DNA from: an uncultured bacterium
GTDB taxonomy: Bacteria > Bipolaricaulota > Bipolaricaulia > RBG-16-55-9 > DRJF01
Direction of reading: 5' to 3'
Assembly: GCA_913053845.1 (NCBI GenBank)
Contig: CAJXGD010000005.1
Coordinates: forward strand, 2,239 to 66,238
Length of the DNA: 64,000 nt
Each line of letters starts with the position of its first letter. Positions within the stretch are counted from its first letter, which is position 1. The position numbers and the translations under genes were made by a program. A model generated the notes under the pieces. The model saw only the letters and a program-made list of their open reading frames with translations. It was not told the DNA's origin and made no database searches. Positions 50,913 through 64,000 of the stretch are shown here, piece after piece.

Positions 50913-51189
50913 AATCAAGCACTCAAGGCCTATAGAGGGCAAGCCGCTCTCCCAGGTGGCCCATCCGCCCCGCCCACTTGAGCCATATCCATAGGTTGTG
51001 TAACATCACCGCGATCCCCAGCAGTAGCAAGCGCAGCCCCACCCGCCGCTACGCAGTGCGTGCTCGTGCCTGTTCCTACACCCGGTGGTTGCTCTCGATC
51101 CCGAACCGCCTGCGGTACTTTCCCCCCAAGTGAGTGCAAGAAAGTTCTTTACTCAGTCAGCTAGCCCTGGTATACTGGCGGCGCGAGAT

Positions 51190-52497
51190 ATGGATCTACT
51201 CAGTTGGATCACTGCGGCCTTTGTCCAGTACGGCTATTGGGTCGTCTTCTTAGGTGTCATGCTGGAGAACGCCGGCATCCCCTTGCCGGGGGAGACGATC
51301 CTGCTGGCGGCGGCTTTCTTCGCCTACCAGGGGCACTTCAATCTGGTTATCGTCATCGCTGTGGCCGCCGTAGGCGCAGTGCTCGGTGACAACGCCGGCT
51401 ACTGGATCGGTCGCCGCGGCGGGAGATCGCTGCTCGAGCGCTACGGAGGTTATCTGCTCCTGAACGCGAAGCGACTAGCTGGCTTGGAGCGCTTTTTCGA
51501 GCGTTACGGCGCCAAGGCGGTCTTCTTCGCCCGCTTCGTCACTGGATTTCGCGTCTTTACCGCCCTCTTCGCCGGAGCCGGGCAGATGCCCTGGCCGAAG
51601 TTTGTGTTCTATAATGCCGCCGGTGCGCTCATCTGGAGCATTACCATGGGGTCCTTGGGCTATCTTTTCGGCTACAGCTGGGAGGCACTGGCCCATTGGC
51701 TGGGGCGTGGCAGCTTGGTCGCCGGGGCGGCGCTGCTGCTCATCTTTGCGCTTGTCTGGATTCGCCGTCGCCTGCCGGCCTGGCAACGTGCACTCGATGG
51801 CTGGCTGCCCCGCACCCTGGGCCTGCGCGAGCTGCTGATCAGCTTCGCCACTCTGCTCAGCTTGGGGCTCTTCTCCAAAGTAGCTCAGGACGTGGCAGCC
51901 AACGAGTCGCAGCGCTTCGACCTGACTATCTTACAGACCATCCACCGGGATCTGCCCGCTGGTTGGGAGTCGCTGATGAAGGCCATCACTGCTCTGGGGT
52001 CGTTTAAAAATCTCGGCGGACTTTTGATCATCATCCTGCTAGTCCTGCTCTGGCGGCGGCGCTGGAGGATCGCGCGATTTCTGGCCGTCACCGGTCTGCT
52101 CACCCCAGTTTTTATCGAGGGGCTCAAGCTGGCTTTCCATCGGGCTCGTCCCCATCTCTGGCCCGCACCATTCGAAGCTTCGTACAGCTTTCCCTCTGGC
52201 CACGCGCTGGGCTCGCTGGTCATCTACGGTGTGCTGGCCTATCTGGTCGACAAGACCTGGCCGCGCTGGCGGCCGGCCATCTGGAGCGTCTACCTGGTGC
52301 TGGTGTTGACGATCGGCTTCAGCCGACTATATCTGGGTGTGCACTGGCCTACCGACATCTTGGGTGGTTGGGCCGCCGGAGGACTGCTGCTCTTCGGGCT
52401 GATCTACTGGCGCGAGGGACGCTATCGCCTGCCGGCGCTGGTTTGGCTTGAGCTGCGCAAGTTGTGGAACCGAGTAGGGACGAATAGCCGTAGCTGA
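51190..52497 (+). CDS. DedA (VTT/SNARE-associated) domain fused to a PAP2 phosphatase domain
   Basis: Start placed at ATG 51190 (MDLLSWITAAFVQYGYW…), 36 codons into the longer ORF from 51085. N-terminal DedA segment (…DNAGYWIGRRGG…). C-terminal PAP2 motifs KLAFHRARP…SFPSGHA…SRLYLGVHWPTD. Confidence 0.8.
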   Translation: MDLLSWITAAFVQYGYWVVFLGVMLENAGIPLPGETILLAAAFFAYQGHFNLVIVIAVAAVGAVLGDNAGYWIGRRGGRSLLERYGGYLLLNAKRLAGLERFFERYGAKAVFFARFVTGFRVFTALFAGAGQMPWPKFVFYNAAGALIWSITMGSLGYLFGYSWEALAHWLGRGSLVAGAALLLIFALVWIRRRLPAWQRALDGWLPRTLGLRELLISFATLLSLGLFSKVAQDVAANESQRFDLTILQTIHRDLPAGWESLMKAITALGSFKNLGGLLIIILLVLLWRRRWRIARFLAVTGLLTPVFIEGLKLAFHRARPHLWPAPFEASYSFPSGHALGSLVIYGVLAYLVDKTWPRWRPAIWSVYLVLVLTIGFSRLYLGVHWPTDILGGWAAGGLLLFGLIYWREGRYRLPALVWLELRKLWNRVGTNSRS

Positions 52498-52533: not shown

Positions 52534-52562
52534 TTGACAGCAGGAAAAATCTTTGCTAAAGT
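52534..52562 (+). promoter_or_regulatory. Putative sigma70-type promoter of the dynamin/Ehr operon (TTGACA-N17-TAAAGT)
   Basis: TTGACA at 52534-39, 17-nt spacer, TAAAGT at 52557-62. A 150-nt leader follows, with a G/C hairpin just before the ATG at 52711. Confidence 0.4.
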
Positions 52563-52710: not shown

Positions 52711-54534
52711 ATGGACCATAGCCAGCAAGATTCAATGGCCCAGGCGGTGCTCAGCCGGCAAGAGAGGAAGGCCGACGCGGGGCTCAAATCTCTCCTGGAG
52801 CAGAGTTTAATAATCCTTAACCAGCTCGGTCCGGAGTTCACCACCGACGGTGAAAACCTGCTGGCCTTACAGTCGCGTCTGCTGGCTGACCGCTTTCAGT
52901 TGGCCGTGCTGGGCCAGTTCAAACGGGGCAAGAGCACGCTGCTCAACGCGCTGCTCGGCGAGGAGCTCCTGCCCACCTCCGTCCTGCCTCTCACCGCTAT
53001 TCCTACTTTCTTGCAGTGGGGTCCCAGACTCCGCGCCCGGGTCGTCTATCAGGATGGTCGCTCGGCAGAAGAGTTCTGCGGAGAGGTACCCGCTGAGCTG
53101 GCGGCCTTTTTGGCGAAGTTCGTCACCGAGGAGGTCAATCCCCGGAACCGCTTGGGCATCTCGCAGGTGGAGGTCTTCCATCCGGCTCCCCTGCTGAAGG
53201 GTGTAGTGCTGATCGACACGCCGGGCATCGGCTCGACCCTGCGGCATAATACGGAGACCACCCTGAGCTTCTTGCCCCAGTGCGATGCGGCCCTGTTCGT
53301 CGTATCGGCCGATCCGCCGATCACCGAGGTCGAAGTGAAGTTCCTCCAGGCCATTCTGCCCCAGGTGGCTCGGCTCTTCGTCGTGCTGAACAAGATAGAT
53401 TACTTGAGAGAGACGGAGCGCAAGACCGCGCTGAATTTTCTCGCCCAGGTGCTGAACCAGGAGGTGGGGCTTAAGGGGGAGATCCCGATCTTCTCCGTCT
53501 CGGCGCGCCAGGGGCTTGAGGCCCGCAGCTCTGGGGATAGCCGGCGCTGGTCCCAGAGCGGTGTGGAAGCTCTCGAACGCTACCTACTGGACTTCCTGGC
53601 CTATGACAGATCTCGGGCGCTCAAGCAAGCCCTAGCGCAGAAGGTCGCCGACATCCTCGCCGACGTCTTGATGCGACTGGAGATCTCGATTCGCTCGCTG
53701 CAGTTGCCGTTGACAGAGCTGGAAGAGCGCTTGCAGCTTTTCCAGCAACAGCTCCAGGAGGCAGAAGCCCAGCGCATCATCGCCGCTGACCTGCTGCAGG
53801 GAGATCAGCGGCGCTTGGCCGCCCGTCTCGAGGAGCAGGCCGAGAGCTTGCGCCGAGGGGCCCGGGATCATCTTGGGGAGATCGCCAAGAGAGAACTGGC
53901 CCGGCAGGGCGATCAGCTCGATGAAGGTGCTGTAGAGCGCGTCTTAGCTGAGGCGATCCCGGCCTTCTTCGCCGGGCAGCTCGAAGCGCTCTCGGGGGAG
54001 TTCGCGCAGCAGGTGGCCGAGACGCTGCGCCCTCACGAACAGCGGGCTGATGAGCTAGTTGAGGCCATACGCCGCGGGGCGGCGGAGCTCTTTGAAGTGC
54101 CCTATCGCGCGCCGCAGAGCGTCCGTGCCTTCGAGGTGCGCCGCCGGCCATACTGGGTGACTCAACGGCCGGATGCCTCTTTAACCTCGATCTCTGCCGG
54201 CCTGGCGGAGCGGCTGTTGCCTGCCCACCTGCACCGCGTGCGTGCGGCAAAACGGCTAATGGCTCAGGTCGAGTCACTGGTGCTGCAGAACGTGGAGAAC
54301 CTGCGTTGGGCGACCCGGCAGAACCTGGATCAGGCCTTCCGTCGCTTCGCCGCTAGCCTGGAAGAGCGCCTCCAGGAGACGATCGCCGCCACCCAGGGGG
54401 CCATTCAAGCGGCCTGGACCAAACGCCAGGAGAGCGCTCCGGCCGTCTCCGCCGAGGTCAAGCGCCTGGAGTCGGTGGCCGCAGAGCTGCGCCAGGTCCA
54501 AGCTCGACTGGAAAAGGCAAACTTATGGAGCTGA
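52711..54534 (+). CDS. Bacterial dynamin-like GTPase
   Basis: G1 GQFKRGKSTLLNALLG. G3 VLIDTPGIGS. G4 LNKID. Long coiled-coil stalk. 607 aa. Confidence 0.8.
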   Translation: MDHSQQDSMAQAVLSRQERKADAGLKSLLEQSLIILNQLGPEFTTDGENLLALQSRLLADRFQLAVLGQFKRGKSTLLNALLGEELLPTSVLPLTAIPTFLQWGPRLRARVVYQDGRSAEEFCGEVPAELAAFLAKFVTEEVNPRNRLGISQVEVFHPAPLLKGVVLIDTPGIGSTLRHNTETTLSFLPQCDAALFVVSADPPITEVEVKFLQAILPQVARLFVVLNKIDYLRETERKTALNFLAQVLNQEVGLKGEIPIFSVSARQGLEARSSGDSRRWSQSGVEALERYLLDFLAYDRSRALKQALAQKVADILADVLMRLEISIRSLQLPLTELEERLQLFQQQLQEAEAQRIIAADLLQGDQRRLAARLEEQAESLRRGARDHLGEIAKRELARQGDQLDEGAVERVLAEAIPAFFAGQLEALSGEFAQQVAETLRPHEQRADELVEAIRRGAAELFEVPYRAPQSVRAFEVRRRPYWVTQRPDASLTSISAGLAERLLPAHLHRVRAAKRLMAQVESLVLQNVENLRWATRQNLDQAFRRFAASLEERLQETIAATQGAIQAAWTKRQESAPAVSAEVKRLESVAAELRQVQARLEKANLWS

Positions 54535-54959
54535 GCGAGGGCGATCGTTCAGAGGTGAACCTGCGGCACCGCCGTGTGATTCGCCTAAATCTGCTCATCT
54601 TGGAGGAGACGATGGCCGAGGTCGAGCGGCTGATCGGCGCTGAAGGAGAGGGGATCCTGCGGCGACGGCGCAACCCGCTGAGCACCGCCACGCGCCAGGA
54701 GCTCTTGGACCGGATCGAGCAGGTGCGCCGAACATTGGTCGAGCTGAAGGATTCCTTCGGCTTTGCGGTCGAAGAGCAGGATGTGACGCGGATGATCCGC
54801 GCGCTGCTCTCCCATCAATGGACGGTGCTCTGCGACACTGAATCGCGCCGGCTGCGGGGTTATGGGGAGCCGGCGCCGGAGTTGGCGGCGCGGCTAGATC
54901 CCTCAATTGCCAAGTTGATCCGGCTCGTCGAAGGGATGGAAGCGTGCCTGGTGAGGTGA
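54525..54959 (+). CDS. Hypothetical 144-aa protein (translationally coupled to the dynamin gene)
   Basis: Overlaps the dynamin stop by 10 nt. Predicted helical, no motif. Confidence 0.4.
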   Translation: MELSEGDRSEVNLRHRRVIRLNLLILEETMAEVERLIGAEGEGILRRRRNPLSTATRQELLDRIEQVRRTLVELKDSFGFAVEEQDVTRMIRALLSHQWTVLCDTESRRLRGYGEPAPELAARLDPSIAKLIRLVEGMEACLVR

Positions 54960-54963
54960 GCTG

Positions 54964-55959
54964 ATGGGACAAAGTGTGAGCAGGGAGGTCGATCTCATGC
55001 CATGTCTCTTCCGCGAGCAGGCGCTGGACGAGGCCGGCCGGGCGGTCTATCACTGCCGGGCGGGAGGAGACTTCGTGCTGGGAACCGTGGGAAGTTTGGC
55101 CGTCCAGCAGATCTGTGGGAGCTGTCTCGTGCCGGCGGAGTATGCGCCGGAGCGCCAGCCCTGTCTGTACCTGGTGCCGCTGCGGGTATTTGGGTCAGCA
55201 GGAACCCCAACCTTCCTGCTCTGCCGCTGGTTTTACCACAGTGGGCCGCGCAGCTGGGTGCACAGTGCTGAGCAGCAGTGTCCTTGTCCTCACTGGTTTC
55301 CCCATCCAGGGAGACAGCACTCGCCGGCGATCGAGGCGATGAACGCGGGGGTGATTCGGGACGCGCTGGCGCTCTACCGAGAAAGGGAGGCACTCCTCAG
55401 CGCGCTGGGCACCCCAGAGGGCGGTTGCCCGATCTGTCAGCGGGTGAGCTGCAAGTCAAGCTCGTTCCTGAACGGTTTGAGCGCTGCTGAGCGGACGCAC
55501 CTCTGCCAAGCGCACCGCGCTCAGCAGGGGAGTGCTCTGCGCCTACCCTCGCAAGAGGAGCAGTTGCAGCTTTTGGAGGAGGCAGAGCGTGCGCTGGAGC
55601 AACTGGCACAGCAATTGGCACAGCCTGGGCAGTTACCCAATCATCGGATAAATATACCCTTTTGGCTAAAGCGGCACCTGCGGCGTCGGCGGACGAGAGC
55701 TGAGCTGGGGGAGGCGATCTGCCCGGCCTGCACGCGGGAGACTGAATGGATCGCTCCGGCGATGAAGGAATTGATCGGCTTACTGCTGCGTGATCCGGCT
55801 GGACCTCGGCTCTATACGCACTCCGCCGGCCTGTGCGCCAACCATTTCGGTCAGCTGCTGGCGCAGGTAGGCCAACCGTGGCATGAACACCTACTCTCTC
55901 TGCAGCGGCAGGCGCTCGCGCAACAAAGGGCCAGGCTGGAGCAGCTGCAGCGCGGCTGA
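54964..55959 (+). CDS. Cys-rich protein with repeated CPxC…LCxxH modules
   Basis: CGSC, CPCPH, CPICQ…(21 aa)…LCQAH, and CPACT…(32 aa)…LCANH. 331 aa. Starts 5 nt after the previous stop. Confidence 0.5.
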   Translation: MGQSVSREVDLMPCLFREQALDEAGRAVYHCRAGGDFVLGTVGSLAVQQICGSCLVPAEYAPERQPCLYLVPLRVFGSAGTPTFLLCRWFYHSGPRSWVHSAEQQCPCPHWFPHPGRQHSPAIEAMNAGVIRDALALYREREALLSALGTPEGGCPICQRVSCKSSSFLNGLSAAERTHLCQAHRAQQGSALRLPSQEEQLQLLEEAERALEQLAQQLAQPGQLPNHRINIPFWLKRHLRRRRTRAELGEAICPACTRETEWIAPAMKELIGLLLRDPAGPRLYTHSAGLCANHFGQLLAQVGQPWHEHLLSLQRQALAQQRARLEQLQRG

Positions 55960-55969
55960 GGCACACATA

Positions 55970-56920
55970 ATGACCACACGAATCCTCTACAACTTGCTCC
56001 AAGTCGCGGTCGTGATGACCTTTGCCCCCCTGATGGCCGGTGTGCTGGCCAAACTCAAGGAGATGGTGCAGTCCAGGCGTGGGCCGAGCGTCTTCCAGCC
56101 CTACCGGGATCTGTGGAAGCTCTTCCACAAGGATGAGGTCATCCCTGAGGAGAGCTCCTGGATCTTTCGGGTGACGCCCTATATCGTGTTCGTCACACCC
56201 ATCTTTGTGACACTGCTCATCCCCGTGCTCACCAGCTACCCGCTCTTCTTCGCCTTTATGGGCGACATGCTCGGCGTGGGGTTCGTCTTGGCGCTGGGCG
56301 GGTTCTTCGCGGCACTGGCTGCGGTGGACACGGCCAACCCCTACGGCCCAATGGGAGCCAGTCGCACGCGCATGGTGAGCTTCTTGGCCGAGCCGGTCTT
56401 CATGATCGTCTTCTTCACCGTCTCCTTCGTGGCCGGCTCCACCATCCCCTACATCGTGCAGCAGAGCTGGGTGACCCCTCTCGCAAATTTCTTTGAGCCG
56501 GCGCACGTGCTGCTGCTGCTCGCGTTCTTCATGCTGATTACCGCCGAGACTGGGCGCATCCCCGTGGACAACCCCTCGGGCCACTTTGAGCTGGCTATGA
56601 TTGACGAGTCCAAAGGACTGGAGTATTCAGGTCAAGGCGCGGCACTGATGAAGTGGGGCGGTTGGATGAAGTTCTTCGTGTTGGTCTGCATCTATCTCAA
56701 CGTGCTGGTCACGCCCTGGGGCCTGGCGGGCGGCCAGGCAGCGGGCGAGGTATTTCTGGCAATCCCGCTGGTGCTGCTCAAGATATTGGCCTTCGTGCTC
56801 GTGCTGGTGGTGATCGAGTCGTCGCTGGCCAAGCTGCGTCTCTTTCGCATCAGCGAATTTCTCGGCGCGGCGTTTGTCACCGCAGTGGCGGCGATGATCG
56901 CCCAATTGTTCGCGCTCTAA
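55970..56920 (+). CDS. NuoH/HyfC(HycD)-like membrane subunit of an energy-converting hydrogenase-related complex
   Basis: MTTRILYNLLQVAVVMTFAPLMAGVLAKLKEMVQSRRGPSVFQPYRDLWKLF is the NuoH/HycD signature. Eight TM helices. Confidence 0.8.
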   Translation: MTTRILYNLLQVAVVMTFAPLMAGVLAKLKEMVQSRRGPSVFQPYRDLWKLFHKDEVIPEESSWIFRVTPYIVFVTPIFVTLLIPVLTSYPLFFAFMGDMLGVGFVLALGGFFAALAAVDTANPYGPMGASRTRMVSFLAEPVFMIVFFTVSFVAGSTIPYIVQQSWVTPLANFFEPAHVLLLLAFFMLITAETGRIPVDNPSGHFELAMIDESKGLEYSGQGAALMKWGGWMKFFVLVCIYLNVLVTPWGLAGGQAAGEVFLAIPLVLLKILAFVLVLVVIESSLAKLRLFRISEFLGAAFVTAVAAMIAQLFAL

Positions 56921-56938: not shown

Positions 56939-57634
56939 ATGTCGCAAGGGTTCGAGCCGCTGTTGAGCGCACTGAATGCCCTGGCTGGAGGGCTCTTCCT
57001 GCTGTCGGCCTTCGGGATGGTGGCCACGCGCCAGGTGCTGGGATGTCTGCGCTTCTTCATCGCCCAGTCGCTGCTACTGGCCGCCAGCGCTTTTCTGCTA
57101 GGAGCCGCTCCTCTCTCGGCCCACCTGATCGCCGTGGGCCTGCTGACTATAATTACCAAGTCCTGGTTGTTGCCCTGGCTGCTGCGGCGCATGGTGCGCC
57201 AGGAGGTCTACACCCGGCGCGAGATCACCCAAGCGGTCAACATCCCCAGCTCGCTGCTCATCGCCTTGGGCCTGGTGCTGGGAGCCTATTTCCTGAGCGC
57301 TCCTTGGCTGCCGGCCGGGGCGGCTGCGGGTGCCGGTTTCGTAAGGATCAACCTGCCGATCGGCCTGGCCGGCCTGCTGCTGGGAGCTTACACCCTGGCG
57401 GTGCGTCGCGAGGCGCTGCCGCAGCTCTTGGGCCTGCTGGCCATGGAGAACGGGGCCTTCTTCGCCGGGATCGCTGTCGCGCCGGGGTTGTCGCTTATCG
57501 CCGAGCTGGCCGTGGCCTTCGACGTGCTCGTCTTGGCCTTTGTCCTGGGCGTGCTCACCCGCATGATCCATGAGCGAACCGGCAGCACCGAGGTCGGTCG
57601 GCTGGCCGCACTCAAGGAGGAGCCCTTCCGATGA
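56939..57634 (+). CDS. HyfE-like small membrane subunit
   Basis: 231 aa, about seven TM helices. Its position and size correspond to HyfE/MbhD-type subunits. Confidence 0.65.
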   Translation: MSQGFEPLLSALNALAGGLFLLSAFGMVATRQVLGCLRFFIAQSLLLAASAFLLGAAPLSAHLIAVGLLTIITKSWLLPWLLRRMVRQEVYTRREITQAVNIPSSLLIALGLVLGAYFLSAPWLPAGAAAGAGFVRINLPIGLAGLLLGAYTLAVRREALPQLLGLLAMENGAFFAGIAVAPGLSLIAELAVAFDVLVLAFVLGVLTRMIHERTGSTEVGRLAALKEEPFR

Positions 57635-59073
57635 TCCTGATCGCTATTCTAGCGCTGCCGCTGCTGGCGGCAGCAGTTTGCGGCCTGTCCGGCTCCGAGC
57701 GGTGGTCCCCGCGGGTGACGCTGCTGGCGGCGCTGGCGAACTTGCTGCTGGCCGGAGAGGTAGCGCTGCGGGCGGCCGGCGGAGAGACCATCGTCGCCTT
57801 GCCCCACTGGATCGCCGCCGACGGCCTGAGCGCCTTGATCGCGCTGCTGATCACCGCCGTGGGGACGAGCGCCGCGCTCTTCTCCTGGGGCTATATGGCA
57901 CACTCGACTCAAAAGCCACGGGCACTGCGACTCTACTACGTTAATTTCAACTTGTTCCTCTTTGCCATGCTGGCCGTTCCCCTGCTGGCCGAGCCCAATC
58001 TGGTCTGGATCGCCGTGGAGCTGACCACGCTCTTCTCGGTATTATTAGTCTCTTTCGCTGACACCCATGACGCCCTGGAGGCGGCCTGGAAGTACGCGGT
58101 GCTCACCTTGTCCGGGGCGGCGATCGCCCTCTTCGGCTTCTTGCTGCTCTTTTGGGCCTGGCAGACCGCCGGGGGCGGGCCGTATAGCTGGGCCACTCTG
58201 CGCGCCGCGGCCGGCGCTATGCCACCTCGGCTGCTGCAGGCGGCCTTCTTGCTCATCCTGGTGGGCTTTGGGGCCAAGGTGGGCCTGGTGCCACTGCACA
58301 CCTGGCTGCCCGATGCCCATAGCCAGGCCCCCACACCGGTCTGCGCTCTGCTCTCCGGCGTGGAGACCTCAGCAGTGCTCTACGTGATATTGCGCCTGTT
58401 GCCCCTGCTGGGCCCCGCCAGCCAAGGGCGTGCCTGGGCGCTGGCCTTCGGCCTGCTCTCGGCGGGCGTGGCCTCATTCTTGCTGCTGCGGGTGCGCGAC
58501 TATAAGCGACTTTTCGCCTTTTCTACTGTAGAACAGATGGGGATCGTGCTGGCCGCTGCCGGGCTGGGCTCCGGCGCGGCTAGCTATGCCGCCCTGCTCC
58601 AAATCGTAGCTCATGCGCTCGGCAAATCATTCTGCTTCTACGCCGCCGGCTCGGCGGCGCTCTTGAGCGGGACCACCGAGATCGCCGGGGTGCGCGGTCT
58701 GCTGCGCAGCTCGCCGCTCGGCGGTATCGCCCTGCTGCTGGGAGGTCTGACCATCGCCGGGGCGCCCCCCTTGGCGCTCTTTTTGAGCGAGTTTTCCATC
58801 CTGAAGGCCGGCCTGTCCGGCGGGCAATACCTGGCAGTAGCGCTGCTCACGCTGTTCATTGCAGTAGCTTTCTTCGGCATCTTACGCCACATACTGCCCA
58901 TGGTCTTCGGTAAGCCCCTGCCGCAATCTGTCAACAGGAAACTGCCCCGCAGTGTTGTGCTGACACTGCTGCTGGCCGCGCTGCCGCTCTTCGTGCTGGG
59001 GGTCTATCTCCCGGAGCAGCTTAGCGCGCTATTACGCGTTGCGGCCGCGGCTCTGACCCACTTGGCGAGGTGA
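57631..59073 (+). CDS. NuoN/NuoM/HyfF-like antiporter-type membrane subunit
   Basis: 480 aa with 14 TM helices. Contains the conserved TWLPDAHSQAPTPV motif (…LHTWLPDAHSQAPTPVCALLSG). Confidence 0.8.
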   Translation: MILIAILALPLLAAAVCGLSGSERWSPRVTLLAALANLLLAGEVALRAAGGETIVALPHWIAADGLSALIALLITAVGTSAALFSWGYMAHSTQKPRALRLYYVNFNLFLFAMLAVPLLAEPNLVWIAVELTTLFSVLLVSFADTHDALEAAWKYAVLTLSGAAIALFGFLLLFWAWQTAGGGPYSWATLRAAAGAMPPRLLQAAFLLILVGFGAKVGLVPLHTWLPDAHSQAPTPVCALLSGVETSAVLYVILRLLPLLGPASQGRAWALAFGLLSAGVASFLLLRVRDYKRLFAFSTVEQMGIVLAAAGLGSGAASYAALLQIVAHALGKSFCFYAAGSAALLSGTTEIAGVRGLLRSSPLGGIALLLGGLTIAGAPPLALFLSEFSILKAGLSGGQYLAVALLTLFIAVAFFGILRHILPMVFGKPLPQSVNRKLPRSVVLTLLLAALPLFVLGVYLPEQLSALLRVAAAALTHLAR

Positions 59074-59080
59074 TCGCATC

Positions 59081-60661
59081 ATGAAAGATATGCAAGCGCT
59101 CTGCGAGCAGGCCCGGCAGCTTTGGCCCAGCGAGGTCCAGGCTCTCAGGATCGACGAGGCCGGCCGGCTGGGCGAGCTGCGCTGCGCTCCCCAGACGCTG
59201 CCTGAGCTGGCGGACTGGTTGTTCAACGAGTTGAGCTATCAGTTTGCCGGGCTGATCGTCGAAGAGGCTGGGCGGCACTGGGAGCTGCGCTACCTATTTT
59301 ACGGTCAGGCCGGCCGGCTCTATCTCTTGAGCGAGCAACCCTTGGCCGAGAGGAGTTTTCCCAGCCTCAGCACCAGGGTGCATGCCGCCGACTGGCAGGA
59401 GCGTGAGGCCGAAGACCTGTTCGGATTGGTCTTCAGCGGCCATCCCCGTTTGGGAGATTTTGTTCTGCATGATGACCTCTGGCCGGAGGGACTGGAGCCC
59501 ATGCGCCGCTCATTCACCGGCACCCGGCCGGTGAGCGACCGCCAGGCGCGCACCGATTGGCGACCGAGACGGATCGTGCAGGCCCCAGGGGCGTTCGTCA
59601 TGCCCATTGGACCCATCTATGGGGGAGCCACCGAGTCGGCCCACTTCCTGCTGGAGACGGTCGGTGAAGAGGTGATTCGCGCCTTCCCACGGCTTTTCTA
59701 TCAATACCGTGGGGTCGAAAAACGCGCCGAGGGTGCGCCGTTCTCCCAGGGCTTGCTGCTGGCCGAGCGCTTCGCTGCCCGCAGTGCTTTCGCCCACGCG
59801 CTGGCCTACTCGCGCGCCATTGAGGCTTTGAGTGCGGTTGAGCTGCCCCCGCGCGCCCGGCAGTTGCGGGTCTTCTTCGCCGAGCTGGAGCGCTTCCGGC
59901 ATCACCTGGGCACCATTGAGGGGATCTGCACCTCGACCGGGCTGGCCGTGGCCGCCAGTCAAGCAGCCCTGCTGGAAGAGGAGGCGCTGAGGCTCTCCGG
60001 CGCGCTGGCGGGCCATCGTTATCTCTTCGGCCTGGCAGCGCCCGGCGGATTGGCCCACGATGTGCCGGCGGCGGCCTGCCGCGAGGCGGTCAGTCAGGCC
60101 CAGGCTATCCGGCGACGCGCGCAGGAGCTGCACCAGCGCCTGCGCCGCTCCTCCAGCTTCCTCGATCGCTTGGAGCAAGTGGGCCTCATCTCCCCGGAGC
60201 AGGCCCGCGATCATGGCCTGGTCGGCCCGGTGGCCCGCGCTTCGGGGCTCTCTCGCGATCTGCGGCAGGCACAGCCCTACTCCGGCTATCCATCGTGCTC
60301 ATTTAGAGTTCCCTGTGAGCGGGAAGGGGATGGCTACGCGCGACTGCGGGTCTTCTTCGCCGAGATTGATCAAGCGGTGGAGCTCATGGCTCAAGCGGCG
60401 CAAGATCTGCCGCGCGGCCCGGTCAGGGCAGAGTGCCGGCCGGCGGCAGGAGCGGCGCTGGGCTGGGTCGAGGCTCCGGTGGGTGCGGCCTTCCATTGGG
60501 TCCGTCTGGATGAGAGCGGCCGGATCATGCGCTATCGGCTGATGACGCCGTCCTTTGCCAACTGGCACGGCTTCCACCTGGCCGCCGAGGGCTTTGCCTT
60601 TCAGGATTTTCCGATTATCCTGGCCACCTTTGGGCTGTCGGTGGCCGAGAACGATCGTTAG
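59081..60661 (+). CDS. Fused NuoC-NuoD / HycE-like large subunit lacking the NiFe-binding cysteines
   Basis: The N-terminal roughly 170 aa are NuoC-like (…ELRYLFYG…RVHAADWQEREAEDLFG). The remainder is NuoD/HycE-like. The RxCGxCxxxH site reads GGATESAH. The C-terminal DPCxxCxxH/R site reads GLSVAENDR. Confidence 0.8.
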   Translation: MKDMQALCEQARQLWPSEVQALRIDEAGRLGELRCAPQTLPELADWLFNELSYQFAGLIVEEAGRHWELRYLFYGQAGRLYLLSEQPLAERSFPSLSTRVHAADWQEREAEDLFGLVFSGHPRLGDFVLHDDLWPEGLEPMRRSFTGTRPVSDRQARTDWRPRRIVQAPGAFVMPIGPIYGGATESAHFLLETVGEEVIRAFPRLFYQYRGVEKRAEGAPFSQGLLLAERFAARSAFAHALAYSRAIEALSAVELPPRARQLRVFFAELERFRHHLGTIEGICTSTGLAVAASQAALLEEEALRLSGALAGHRYLFGLAAPGGLAHDVPAAACREAVSQAQAIRRRAQELHQRLRRSSSFLDRLEQVGLISPEQARDHGLVGPVARASGLSRDLRQAQPYSGYPSCSFRVPCEREGDGYARLRVFFAEIDQAVELMAQAAQDLPRGPVRAECRPAAGAALGWVEAPVGAAFHWVRLDESGRIMRYRLMTPSFANWHGFHLAAEGFAFQDFPIILATFGLSVAENDR

Positions 60662-60677
60662 TCGGAGAGGAGGAATA

Positions 60678-61448
60678 ATGAGCGAATGGGTCTTGCAAGG
60701 TCTGCGCACCGGGATCAAAACCACGCACTATCCCGACGCCAGAGAGCGCGCGCCGGGCGTCTCACCCGGTCGGCCGGTCGGGGGCAGTTATCCCGCAGAT
60801 CAAGCTGAAGCGCTGCTGGCCCGCTGTCCCACCGGCGCGCTGCGCTATCAGGATGGGCAGGTGATCATTGACTATCGGCGTTGCGTGCATTGCTTCCGCT
60901 GCGCTCGGGAGCTGAAAACGCCCCTCACCTGGGAGATGGATTACGAGTGGGCTGGGGCCAATACGCCAGGATTGACCGGGCCTTTCGGCCGCTCGGTGCA
61001 TATTCTGGTAGTGGACACCGGGGACTGCGGTGCCTGCCTCAATGAGGTGAAGCAGCTCAATAACCCATACTACAACATGCACCGATTGGGCTTCTTCATC
61101 ACGCCCACCCCCCGACAGGCGGACATTCTGCTCGTCGTCGGAGCGCTGAGCGCTCCGATGCGCGAGCCGCTCCTACAAGCCTACCAGGCGATGCCCGACC
61201 CCAAGCGGGTGGTGGCCGTGGGAGCCTGCGCCCTGTCAGGCAGCCTATTTGGGCCCAGCTTCGCCTGCGGCACGGGCGTGAGCGAGCTGCTCCCGGTGGC
61301 GGTAGAGGTGCCGGGCCAGCCGCCGCCGCCGCTGGCCATCCTGCACGGCCTGCTGGTCGCTGTGGGACGCCGGCCGGCCGTCCCGCTCAGCTCACCGAAC
61401 TTGCCTATGCCCATACCTGTAATAGAGGAAGTGCACAGCCGGCCATGA
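60678..61448 (+). CDS. Single-cluster ferredoxin-like module fused to a NuoB/HycG-like small subunit
   Basis: ATG 60678 after a GGAGAGGAGG RBS. N-terminus CPTGAL…RRCVHCFRCA (one 4Fe-4S binding motif). Then DTGDCGAC…AVGACALSG…FACGTG (NuoB-type cluster ligands). Confidence 0.75.
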   Translation: MSEWVLQGLRTGIKTTHYPDARERAPGVSPGRPVGGSYPADQAEALLARCPTGALRYQDGQVIIDYRRCVHCFRCARELKTPLTWEMDYEWAGANTPGLTGPFGRSVHILVVDTGDCGACLNEVKQLNNPYYNMHRLGFFITPTPRQADILLVVGALSAPMREPLLQAYQAMPDPKRVVAVGACALSGSLFGPSFACGTGVSELLPVAVEVPGQPPPPLAILHGLLVAVGRRPAVPLSSPNLPMPIPVIEEVHSRP

Positions 61449-63589
61449 CCCTTGCCACCTTGATCGGGATCTTTTTCGCCCTCTGCGGCGCCGGCCTGCT
61501 GGCTACCCTGGCGCTCCCGGAGCGTCAGGCGCCGCGCGTGCTGGCCTGGAGCGGGGCGCTGGCTTCGTTCTTTATCCTCTGGGCTGGCGCGGCTGCCCTG
61601 CTGGGCGGAGAGAGTTTCCGGCTCTCACTCTGGACGCTGCCCCTGCTGGGACGATTGAGCTTGGGTCTGGACCGGATGGGAGGGCTCTTCCTGCTGATCG
61701 GTGGGCTGGTGACGCTGCCCGTCTCCGTCTTCTCCCTGGGCTACTTGCAGCGCTATCAGGGCAAGTATAACCTGCGCGCTTTCGGGCTGCTCTATCTGGC
61801 GCTGCTGGCCTCACTGGCGCTGATCCCCTTGGCCGCGGACGCCTTCACCTTCCTGATCGCCTGGGAGGCGATGTCGCTGCTCAGCTTCTTCTTGGTCGCC
61901 TTCGAGCATGAGCGCCAGAGAGCGGTCCAAGCGGGCTATCTGATGCTGGCCGTAGGTGAGCTGGGCACGCTGGCCGTCGCCTTGGCCTTCCTGCTGCTGG
62001 CAGGCGCCGCCGGAGGGCTAGATTTTCCCGCGCTGCGAGCGTCGTCCGTCGGGCTGGGCGCGACCATGCGCTGGACCATCTTCCTGCTCTCGTTCTTCGG
62101 ATTTGGGGTCAAAGCCGGACTGGTGCCGGTCAACTTCTGGCTGCCGCGCGCCCACCCGGAGGCCCCGGGCAACGTCTCCGCGCTGCTCTCCGCCGTGATC
62201 CTCAACCTGGGTATCTACGGCATCTTGCGCTTCAATGGTGATCTCTTGCCGATCAACTCAGTCGGGCCGGGCCTGGTCGTCCTGGCGATCGGTGTGCTCT
62301 CCGCGCTGGTGGGCATTCTCTATGCCACCATCGAGAACGATCTGAAAACTCTGTTGGCCCACAGCTCGATCGAGAACATGGGCATCATCACCGCCAGCCT
62401 GGGCGCGGGGTTTATTTTCACCGCTACCGGCCATCCGGTGCCGGCGGCCATCGCCTTCTTAGCGGCTCTCTATCATTTGGTCAATCATTCGGTCTATAAG
62501 GCGTTGCTCTTTCTGGGGGCCGGGACGCTCGATGCCCAACTGGGCACCCGTGATCTCGACCGTTTGGGCGGCCTGCTGAAGCGTATGCCGTGGCTGGGGC
62601 TGTTCATGCTGATCGGGGCCTTGTCCATCGCCGGGCTGCCACCGCTGGGCGGCTTCGTCAGCGAGTGGTTGAGCTTACAGGTGATGCTGCGCAGCGTCGA
62701 GCTGGCCTCCGTAGGGATCAAAGTCGCCTTCGCCTTGGCCGGGGTGGGACTGGCGCTCACCCTGGCGCTGGCGGTCACCTGCTTTGTGAAGACTTTTGCG
62801 ATGGGCTTCTTAGGCTTGGCACGCTCTGAGGTAGCCGAAGCAGCACGGGAGGGGCCGCGCTCGGCGCTGATCCCTCTGGGCTTTCTGGCCGGTCTCTGCC
62901 TGCTGTTGGGACTGGGGGCCACCTACGTCATTCCGGCGCTGGACGGTGTCGTCAGGCCCTTAGCGGGGACCAGCGCAGCCGCAGCCTTGGTGCCACCGTT
63001 CTTCGCCACCCATCCCAAGCAGGCTGAGCTGCCACCGGCCTTCGCCGCCGATTTTCATGATTTGGGCGCTCAACTGGGCAAGAATTTTCTGCCGGGGCGA
63101 GGGCTGGTAGTGCTGCATCGCGGTGGAGCGAAGAACCCGGTAATATTCGCCATGTCCACCGCCTACACTTTTGTGGTGCTCCTGCTGCTGCTGCTCGTCG
63201 TCTATCTGGCTGTGCACTGGGGTCCGGCCTGGCGGCGTCAGGTGACCTACCAGCCGCGCTGGGCAGGGGGGCTGAAAAAGCTCTTGCCGGAGATGACCTA
63301 TACCGCCACGGGCTTTGCCAATCCGGTGCGCGTGATCTTTGAGGCGATCTTCCGGCCCACGGTCGTCGAGAACACCCAAGACGCGGCGCGAGAGCACTTT
63401 CGCACGCTGATCCGGCGGGAGCACCGGCAAGTCCATCTGATCGACCGATTGGTGCTGAAGCCGATCGCCTGGGGTGCTTTGGCCATCGCGGACGGCCTGG
63501 CGCGGATGCATCATGGGCGGATCAACGCCTACGCCGGCTATGGGCTCCTGGTGTTGCTGATCGTCTTGATTCTGGCCCGACTGCTCTAG
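61445..63589 (+). CDS. NuoL/HyfB-like antiporter-type membrane subunit with a long C-terminal extension
   Basis: 714 aa. NFWLPRAHPEAP motif. Sixteen or more TM helices. Start overlaps the previous stop (ATGA). Confidence 0.8.
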   Translation: MTLATLIGIFFALCGAGLLATLALPERQAPRVLAWSGALASFFILWAGAAALLGGESFRLSLWTLPLLGRLSLGLDRMGGLFLLIGGLVTLPVSVFSLGYLQRYQGKYNLRAFGLLYLALLASLALIPLAADAFTFLIAWEAMSLLSFFLVAFEHERQRAVQAGYLMLAVGELGTLAVALAFLLLAGAAGGLDFPALRASSVGLGATMRWTIFLLSFFGFGVKAGLVPVNFWLPRAHPEAPGNVSALLSAVILNLGIYGILRFNGDLLPINSVGPGLVVLAIGVLSALVGILYATIENDLKTLLAHSSIENMGIITASLGAGFIFTATGHPVPAAIAFLAALYHLVNHSVYKALLFLGAGTLDAQLGTRDLDRLGGLLKRMPWLGLFMLIGALSIAGLPPLGGFVSEWLSLQVMLRSVELASVGIKVAFALAGVGLALTLALAVTCFVKTFAMGFLGLARSEVAEAAREGPRSALIPLGFLAGLCLLLGLGATYVIPALDGVVRPLAGTSAAAALVPPFFATHPKQAELPPAFAADFHDLGAQLGKNFLPGRGLVVLHRGGAKNPVIFAMSTAYTFVVLLLLLLVVYLAVHWGPAWRRQVTYQPRWAGGLKKLLPEMTYTATGFANPVRVIFEAIFRPTVVENTQDAAREHFRTLIRREHRQVHLIDRLVLKPIAWGALAIADGLARMHHGRINAYAGYGLLVLLIVLILARLL

Positions 63590-63607: not shown

Positions 63608-64000
63608 ATGGCGCTCTTTACCGGAGAGTTGCAGCGGGCGCTGGCCGCGCCGGGCTGTCCGCTCTGTCGGCTGGTGCGCCATCAGGAGGAGGCCTGGATC
63701 TGGCATACGCTCTATGAGTTCACCGGTGACCCGGGGGTGCGCAGTCGGCTAGATGCCAGCTATGGCCTCTGTCATGAGCACGCGCATCTGCTGCGCCGGG
63801 TGCTGACCGGCCACCGGCTGCTGGGCGGCAGCGGGGTAGCGCGCATCTACGAGACGGTGGTGCTCAGATATAGCGAGCAGTTGGCCGCACTCCAGGGGGC
63901 AGGGGGCAGACTGAAGCAGTGGCTGGGCTCTGAGCGCCAGCAGCTAGCCAAGCTGGAGCTCAAGGGTTGTCCGCTCTGCCTGTCCAGTCAGCAGGCAGAG
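63608..64000 (+). CDS. Cys-rich CPxC…LCxxH-module protein (paralog of 54964-55959), 3'-partial at the window end
   Basis: CPLCRLVRHQEE…(36 aa)…LCHEH. A second CPLC sits at the window edge. RBS GGGAGGA. Confidence 0.45.
   Translation, partial: MALFTGELQRALAAPGCPLCRLVRHQEEAWIWHTLYEFTGDPGVRSRLDASYGLCHEHAHLLRRVLTGHRLLGGSGVARIYETVVLRYSEQLAALQGAGGRLKQWLGSERQQLAKLELKGCPLCLSSQQAE

Follow-up and report, generated by a model that had tools for sequence, protein, structure and literature searches.

Cys/His-rich DUF6062 proteins, one of them fused to an unnamed eight-cysteine domain, on either side of an Ehr-type membrane complex in an uncultured bacterium

An uncultured bacterium of the Bipolaricaulota lineage (NCBI GenBank assembly GCA_913053845.1, contig CAJXGD010000005.1) carries, within the 64,000 nucleotides (nt) analysed here and referred to as the window, a membrane complex of the Ehr type whose genes are bracketed by two genes for cysteine-rich proteins. 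The upstream gene (54964..55959, + strand) encodes 331 amino acids (aa), and the downstream gene (63608..64000, + strand) runs off the end of the window. The two genes are genuine and transcribed together, and the proteins they encode are soluble and rich in Cys and His. The downstream product falls within DUF6062 (PF19538), a Pfam family that has been named but not characterised, and is an ordinary representative of it. The 331-aa protein, as judged from profile, alignment and model evidence, is a new architecture in which an unnamed domain with eight conserved cysteines, called Cys8 in this study, is joined through a linker helix to a divergent DUF6062 domain that scores below the Pfam threshold and lacks the C-terminal tail. 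We regard the identity and architecture of both genes as close to certain. As to their role, the best overall explanation, which we hold at slightly below even confidence, is that they are DUF6062-based Cys/His-rich proteins with an adaptor or regulatory function for NTPase machines and membrane complexes.

A preliminary description of the window, made from its sequence alone, had placed neither protein in a named family, and for the downstream protein the name was found by searching with the Pfam profiles. The window holds the first 131 of about 248 aa of this protein, starting from an ATG preceded by the Shine-Dalgarno sequence GGGAGG, and these contain a first module, CPLC-x34-GLCHEH (63656-63781), and the CPLC of a second at the window edge (63968-63979). 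The GLCNPH that belongs to module 2 lies just beyond the window end and is present in L001, a publicly available contig from this organism, which lengthens the protein to 213 aa, and this version has a precomputed PF19538 match. The Pfam gathering cut-off for PF19538 is 27 bits; the 131-aa fragment reaches 23.5 bits and the full-length protein P0002 (248 aa, 96% identical to the downstream protein) 40.4 bits, and it is by way of P0002 that the downstream protein belongs to DUF6062. PF19538 is carried by 54 out of 54 homologues, which come from Fraserbacteria, Bipolaricaulota/Acetothermia and Chloroflexi, and is matched by every one of the 38 aligned members. Eight positions are invariant in the 38-sequence alignment (C17, C20, C55, H58, C121, C124, C160 and H163), and the downstream gene, read from the window and L001 together, has both CxxC...CxxH modules at exactly these family positions. 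The preliminary description had tied its idea of metal-binding modules to conservation of the Cys and His residues among homologues, and this conservation is what the alignment displays; that the Cys/His pattern is under strong constraint can be regarded as firmly established at the level of aligned sequences. DUF6062 is not mentioned in the literature searched.

When the two halves of DUF6062 are aligned with hhalign they prove homologous (97.9%, E 5.8e-13), and therefore the "module" of the preliminary description is a real repeat unit; to judge from this alignment, the domain arose through internal duplication. An AlphaFold2 model based on 30 sequences is confident (predicted local distance difference test, pLDDT, 90.9; predicted TM score 0.86) and all-helical without any strand, its helices starting at residues 18, 56, 122 and 161, at or just after each CxxC or CxxH. 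A zinc ribbon or treble clef, as suggested in the preliminary description, resembles DUF6062 in having CxxC pairs tens of residues apart, but these folds need beta-hairpin zinc knuckles, and they were rejected in view of the confident model, in which all ligands sit at helix N-termini. Zinc-finger matches among the 38 members are scattered and all of them are sub-threshold. Foldseek comparison of the model with the PDB gave no relative (best E 1.3, TM below 0.25), and a profile search of PDB sequences with DUF6062 found nothing. The predicted folds of both DUF6062 and Cys8 are thus without a Foldseek match in the PDB library searched.

The upstream gene has been called by NCBI as a protein of 320 aa from Met12, in a Candidatus Fraserbacteria metagenome-assembled genome (MAG). 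Its orthologue P0166, which is 58% identical, has the same architecture and keeps all Cys and His residues, begins with "MG..." at the longer start, and both starts of the 331-aa gene have Shine-Dalgarno-like sequences. A word-index homologue search with the 331-aa protein matched only itself, and phmmer, run exhaustively against 1.84 billion representatives, returned about 50 relatives, all of them aligned on residues 10-150 only and most of them stand-alone proteins of 140-230 aa; 74 clusters of Cys8-domain relatives were recovered as well. The N-terminal part constitutes a domain family of its own, Cys8 (aa 12-120, 54997..55323), which had been overlooked in the preliminary description. The CGSC and CPCPH motifs that were reported there are indeed present, as C51/C54 and C106/C108, and belong to a series that consists of C14, C31, C51, C54, C67, C87, C106 and C108, followed by W111 and P113. 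Within an alignment of 29 Cys8 sequences the first six of these cysteines are invariant, C106 and C108 nearly so, and W111 and P113 are also conserved; in a larger alignment of 49 sequences (A6) the cysteines are invariant or at least 90% conserved. A Pfam scan of the 49 members gave no family match, nor was there any NCBIfam match for the Cys8 domain of the 331-aa protein. The AlphaFold2 model of Cys8 is of mixed alpha/beta type (pLDDT about 92-97 for aa 11-90 and 75-97 for residues 11-145), and neither a Foldseek fold search nor a sequence search of the PDB found a match to it.

The remaining cysteines, out of 15 in the whole protein, lie in the C-terminal half, where module 1 with its shortened spacer (CPIC-x22-HLCQAH; C155/C158 and C181/H184; 55426..55515) includes one additional Cys at 163 and is followed by module 2 (CPAC-x34-GLCANH; C253/C256 and C291/H294; 55720..55845). 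PF19538 matches module 2 only (aa 242-307), with 18.7 bits and an E-value of 1.2e-3, and because this is below the 27-bit cut-off we class the protein as remotely related to the family, short of Pfam-threshold membership. When the C-terminal half was compared, together with P0166, with the DUF6062 profile, hhalign gave 98.7% and an E-value of 2.4e-16 over 175 columns with both CxxC and both CxxH in register. Since this match extends over both modules, the two flanking proteins are remote paralogues, in agreement with what the preliminary description had supposed. Compared with Pfam DUF6062, the 331-aa protein differs in its sub-cut-off score, in the shortened first spacer, in its fusion to Cys8 and in the missing tail: it stops at a position aligned to residue ~203 of 248 and has no counterpart of ELQRKQRYDV...SWxEAxWRFxGM, which is nearly invariant among the Fraserbacteria/Bipolaricaulota clade in alignment A2. 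A mixed alignment (A5), in which DUF6062 was laid on the Cys8 domain by matching cysteines, was discarded, and we claim no homology between the two domains. Another protein, P0103 (366 aa), has the appearance of a fusion in the opposite order, DUF6062-Cys8, with an internal "MASD..." Cys8 start and a low-complexity middle; it probably arose when a frameshift or a gene-call error merged two neighbouring genes, and is therefore counted as adjacency only.

The modules noticed in the preliminary description are a rare feature of this DNA. The strict motif CPxC-x15-45-LCxxH has three matches in all six frames of the window, all inside these two genes, and the looser CxxC-x15-45-CxxH has four. The description of the motif needs one correction, as the G or A said to precede LC is found in the other modules, but module 1 of the 331-aa protein has His at this place. 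Taken together, the rarity in the window, the invariance of the ligands in the 38 homologues and the retention of all Cys and His residues in P0166 exclude that the motif occurs by chance.

Between 52711 and the end of the window every gene reads on the + strand, and neither the gaps nor the overlaps between neighbours exceed 18 nt; the two genes are embedded in this operon in the order dynamin-like GTPase, p144, Cys8-DUF6062, NuoH-like, 231-aa protein, NuoN/M-like, NuoCD, NuoB-like, NuoL-like and DUF6062. The first gene (52711..54534) encodes a dynamin-like GTPase of 607 aa (Pfam Dynamin_N, 95 bits), and its stop is overlapped by 10 nt by p144 (54525..54959), a 144-aa member of an unnamed family without a match in Pfam or NCBIfam. 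Starting 10 nt past the stop of the 331-aa gene, the complex begins with the NuoH-like membrane subunit (55970..56920; NADHdh, 118.7 bits), followed by a 231-aa membrane subunit (56939..57634) which has a weak NuoK-like match and is kept with the complex in two other loci (L050 and L060), an antiporter-like subunit of NuoN/M type (57631..59073; 480 aa; Proton_antipo_M, 157 bits), a NuoC-NuoD fusion that is the equivalent of the hydrogenase large subunit (59081..60661; Complex1_30kDa and Complex1_49kDa), a NuoB-like subunit (60678..61448, also given as 60555-61448; 256 aa in L001; Oxidored_q6, 69 bits, and weak Fer4) and an antiporter-like subunit of NuoL type (61445..63589; 714 aa; Proton_antipo_M, 177 bits). 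The DUF6062 gene then follows, and in a close relative (L042) the DUF6062 gene is the last one of the operon, with an unrelated AAA_14/DUF4143 gene after it. A promoter-like TTGACA-17-TAAAGT with TG extension lies on the + strand in the gap before the GTPase gene (52534..52562) and is possibly the start of the operon; it is a consensus match only, in a region where four such matches were found and 1.6 are expected. A terminator scan within the operon gave matches at background level only.

Ehr complexes, which are widespread, are related to complex I and to the energy-converting hydrogenases. They are defined by loss of the NiFe-ligating cysteines, and neither their substrates and partners nor their biogenesis are known (PMC6349859). 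The window shares NuoB-, NuoCD-, NuoH- and NuoL/M/N-like subunits with Ehr and with the group 4 NiFe hydrogenases Mbh, Mbx and Ech, and all four NiFe-ligating cysteines are absent from its NuoCD, which reads RFAARSAFAH and GLSVAENDR at the places where the NiFe enzyme of an Acetothermia MAG (L038) has RICGICSVSH and DPCIACMDR. This combination of subunits with the loss of the four cysteines makes the complex Ehr-type under the definition of that source. A role in NiFe maturation of the Hyp type was considered for the Cys-rich proteins and rejected, since neither has a Hyp-family match in Pfam or NCBIfam and the adjacent complex has no NiFe site. In the portion of the literature on Ehr and Mbh complexes that the search covered, flanking Cys-rich proteins were not found.

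Two further features of the region can be mentioned. The NuoB-like subunit has an N-terminal extension of ~100 aa with ferredoxin-like Cys motifs (CVHCFRC...) and weak Fer4/FdxA matches, and to judge from these motifs it may stand in for a separate NuoI-type subunit in the six-gene complex. Just upstream of the operon (51085-52497, + strand) a 470-aa protein is encoded that joins a DedA/VTT membrane domain to a PAP2 phosphatase, and a PAP2 gene is also found upstream of the orthologous Cys8-DUF6062 gene in locus L039.

To place the two genes in a wider context we gathered loci around DUF6062 (25, from genomes) and around Cys8 (62, from metagenomes) and about 12 contigs by exact protein look-up, and searched all their open reading frames with profiles derived from the window and the loci themselves (numbered L001 and onward); the locus scans used the narrower alignments A2 and A4, A1 and A3 being too diverse. 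The Cys8 loci were dereplicated to 33 clusters, and counts were made on the 16 clusters with at least 5 kb. DUF6062 is present in 12 of the 16, and Cys8 and DUF6062 are fused in the window protein and in P0166, so that through fusion and near-constant adjacency the two are firmly established as functionally coupled. The dynamin-like GTPase occurs in 3/16 clusters and in three more of the shorter loci; it directly adjoins DUF6062 or Cys8 in L006, L024, L027, L029, L030, L041, L051, L052, L064 and L080. Two loci even encode a GTPase of 615-621 aa in which Dynamin_N is joined to a complete two-module DUF6062 (L058:14583-16427 and L060:14232-16094, both on the - strand; PF19538, 46 bits), and its occurrence in two different metagenome contigs means that this fusion is not a gene-calling artefact. 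Besides these fusions, the GTPase is adjacent to DUF6062 in at least six loci. Genetic coupling of Cys8 and DUF6062 to dynamin-like GTPases, through fusion and adjacency, is likewise firmly established.

Ehr-type subunits orthologous to those of the window lie within 8 kb of Cys8 in 6/16 clusters and additionally in L080, where NuoL-like, dynamin-like GTPase and Cys8 genes follow each other on one strand, and NuoL-like orthologues (E down to 2e-149) are located near the Cys8 genes of L057 and L061. Around DUF6062 genes of the Bipolaricaulota type, Mbh/Mbx-like clusters were counted in 4 out of 22 loci of at least 5 kb. In L038 DUF6062 lies directly 3' of a true NiFe Mbh-like operon; in L020, L021 and L026 DUF6062 is followed by Rex and a NiFe-less Mrp/Mbx-like cluster. 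By a rough estimate, a random 16-kb segment would be expected to overlap a complex-I-like cluster about 1-2% of the time. As the recurrence extends across different phyla and across NiFe-containing and NiFe-less types, chance is hard to invoke, and the expectation of the preliminary description that relatives would be found near respiratory complexes is borne out in several lineages. Its word "dedicated" goes too far, because the closest orthologues have no Ehr in the flanks covered (10 kb for L004/L005, 1.4 kb downstream for L039) and other partners are at least as frequent, namely dynamin-like GTPases, MoxR-DUF58-DUF4129, Usp/CBS proteins and Na+/H+ exchangers. Among the 16 Cys8 clusters MoxR is found in 6, DUF58 in 7, DUF4129 in 6, Usp or Usp+CBS proteins in 6-9 and Na+/H+ exchangers in 5; profile search found no MoxR gene in the window. 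What is firmly established is a recurrent, not an obligatory, genetic coupling of Cys8 and DUF6062 with Ehr/Mbh-type complexes and with MoxR systems. A description of this Cys8-DUF6062-dynamin/MoxR-Ehr neighbourhood was not found in the literature searched.

Several other families accompany these genes. The p144 family is found in 6/16 Cys8 clusters and its members stand beside DUF6062 or Cys8 in L004, L012, L014, L039, L050, L057, L061, L064, L066 and others (for example L012:9212-9706, L014:7921-8313 and L039:3940-4395). A HAD-like protein of 155 aa is present in 6/16 and a HEAT-repeat protein in 5/16 clusters. In the DUF6062 loci the dynamin-like GTPase is present in 3/22 and CARR300 in 10/22, the latter being an unnamed family of ~300 aa with the motif TLRVCARRAYT and no Pfam match (L039:5820-6743, L014:8310-9281, L038:10699-11592), which also occurs near the orthologue of the 331-aa protein in L039. 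Up to eight DUF6062 profile matches surround one Cys8 gene in L067:1777-12913 and L079:6375-15262, and such arrays contain tandem four-module DUF6062 proteins of 480-500 aa, which are also known from L040:9162-10598 and L061:8573-10042. A ~620-aa protein with two Usp and four CBS domains comes directly after the NuoL-like gene of the orthologous Ehr clusters in L050:4506-6371, L057:2147-3988 and L061:5766-7622, and is often followed by a DUF2180-like Cys-rich protein of 115 aa and a WD40 protein. In the Acetothermia MAG, L038:7484-9358 (+ strand) encodes a NiFe group-4 small subunit (Oxidored_q6) fused to Fer4_20 and Pyr_redox_2, the latter part being a GltD/SudA-like NAD(P)H oxidoreductase. 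NACHT-domain NTPase and paired MutS_V-domain ATPase genes (L060:11386-14097, - strand, and L105:11260-14291) were also seen, and such neighbours hint at a broader NTPase-rich module.

How these observations may be combined into a mechanism can be outlined as follows. Each half of DUF6062 supplies two ligand pairs, CxxC and CxxH, which in the model lie at the N-termini of two different helices, and so two Cys3His sites would be formed per domain. On the predicted model each site probably binds a metal ion, Zn2+ being the most likely one in view of the helix-cap geometry and the lack of Fe-S signatures, and an Fe-S cluster being possible. Cys8 and DUF6062 would then act jointly, in a manner that depends on metal or thiols, as adaptor or regulatory subunits that connect NTPase machines, the dynamin-like GTPase in this operon and MoxR AAA+/DUF58 elsewhere, to membrane ion-translocating complexes. 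The target in the window would be the NiFe-less Ehr-type complex encoded between the two genes, and the proteins would help in its assembly, its membrane insertion or the control of its activity, not in catalysis. A precedent is offered by MoxR ATPases, which are chaperone-like maturation factors and whose systems mature or modulate respiratory complexes, RavA-ViaA binding to Nuo (PMC3893208). The MoxR-DUF58-DUF4129 genes that recurrently adjoin Cys8 and DUF6062 genes belong to the same kind of MoxR plus VWA/DUF58 system; the NTPase of the window is a dynamin-like GTPase instead, and neither Cys8 nor DUF6062 is related in sequence to ViaA or to VWA proteins. We infer a physical interaction of the Cys-rich proteins with the complex or the GTPase, and an accessory role, from this pattern of fusion and adjacency, and put the adaptor mechanism as a whole forward as a tentative proposal, to which we give appreciably less than an even chance. 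The preliminary description had named assembly factors or redox partners, and an accessory role of this sort is plausible without being exclusive to the Ehr complex.

A number of observations weigh against this proposal. The nearest orthologue of the 331-aa protein is encoded in L039 in the order p151, Cys8-DUF6062, HEAT and CARR300, and there are no Ehr genes in this locus, where the downstream sequence spans only 1.4 kb. Around the DUF6062 genes that are nearest among Fraserbacteria (L004/L015 and L005), the surrounding 10 kb contain MoxR-DUF58 and no Ehr, and most loci are without any Ehr. The neighbourhoods also contain NACHT, WD40, MutS_V and HAD-like genes and up to eight DUF6062 paralogues, and with such mosaic content a stress or conflict system fits as well as an accessory role. 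It is from this side that the most serious alternative comes, which we consider unlikely and still worth keeping in mind: the Cys-rich proteins would belong to an NTPase-centred stress or conflict neighbourhood (dynamin, MoxR-DUF58-DUF4129, NACHT, WD40, Usp/CBS) independent of Ehr, and the Ehr complex would be a mere neighbour or a local insertion. Orthologous loci without Ehr do exist, the six Ehr genes of the window take the place of HEAT and CARR300 in L039, the gene content is mosaic with expanded DUF6062 paralogues, and the GTPase has weak matches to LeoA/LeoBC in PADLOC. These matches, however, reflect generic dynamin homology, and PADLOC has none for the 331-aa protein, P0002, DUF6062, Cys8, p144 or CARR300; moreover, the genes in the window are translationally tight with the complex, and a chance neighbourhood is difficult to reconcile with Ehr/Mbh-type clusters in 6 of the 16 dereplicated Cys8 loci and 4 of the 22 DUF6062 loci.

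The other alternatives assign the cysteines a direct part in redox chemistry or in gene regulation. Because the operon is without NuoEFG or NuoI and has no obvious electron-donor module, and the partners of Ehr are an open question (PMC6349859), the eight conserved cysteines of Cys8 and the four Cys3His sites over both proteins could be imagined to bind Fe-S and to provide Ehr with the cytoplasmic module for electron input or redox chemistry that it lacks; co-transcription of the Cys-rich genes with the complex and the recurrence of Ehr near Cys8 would agree with such an electron-transfer partner. We think this rather improbable, as the cysteines are widely spaced, without CxxCxxCxxxCP or any other known Fe-S signature, and no ferredoxin-type Pfam match exists in 49 Cys8 or 38 DUF6062 members; a 2x[4Fe-4S] ferredoxin in particular was rejected on the lack of CxxCxxCxxxC(P), the Cys8 positions (14, 31, 51, 54, 67, 87, 106, 108) and the absence of Fer4 from the 49 members. 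DUF6062 is, besides, fused to a dynamin GTPase, placed in multi-paralogue arrays and often far from redox complexes, which is unexpected for a dedicated electron carrier, and it is predicted to be a helical bundle with helix-cap ligands. Helix-cap ligands in a helical bundle are more typical of structural or regulatory Zn sites. A variant with a little less to recommend it takes Cys8/DUF6062 as the missing redox or sensor module of Ehr (Fe-S or a redox-active Zn-thiolate), delivered or controlled by a dedicated dynamin-like GTPase. Least probable of all, in our opinion, are redox- or metal-sensing transcriptional or anti-sigma-like regulators, that is, zinc-thiolate switches acting on neighbouring transport or respiratory genes. 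The proteins are helical and rich in Cys and His, the Rex redox repressor adjoins DUF6062 in L020, L021 and L026, and stress-related neighbours such as Usp and CBS proteins are frequent. TAZ domains, which have HCCC sites between helices, and ZAS are likewise all-helical with Cys/His pairs at helix ends forming tetrahedral sites, and the ZAS anti-sigma motif is HxxxCxxC. DUF6062 differs from both in motif order (CxxC...CxxH) and spacing, has no PDB match and no partner sigma factor; no DNA-binding or sigma-factor domain was found in the Cys-rich proteins or in the neighbourhoods inspected, and for want of such genes nearby a ZAS anti-sigma or transcription factor was rejected. Fusion to a dynamin GTPase would also be unexpected for such a regulator. 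The adaptor or regulatory function for NTPase machines and membrane complexes remains our preferred explanation.

With these results the proteins that flank the complex can be named, as DUF6062 and as a Cys8 domain for which there is no Pfam-A or NCBIfam model. Even if the link to Ehr should turn out to be spurious, there would still be a clean description of an uncharacterised gene neighbourhood found in multiple phyla. If the redox- or sensor-module reading were true, the two proteins would represent an accessory system of a new kind serving complex-I-like machines. In any event they can be put forward as concrete candidate accessory factors or partners of Ehr, and they give a Pfam domain of unknown function its first functional context.

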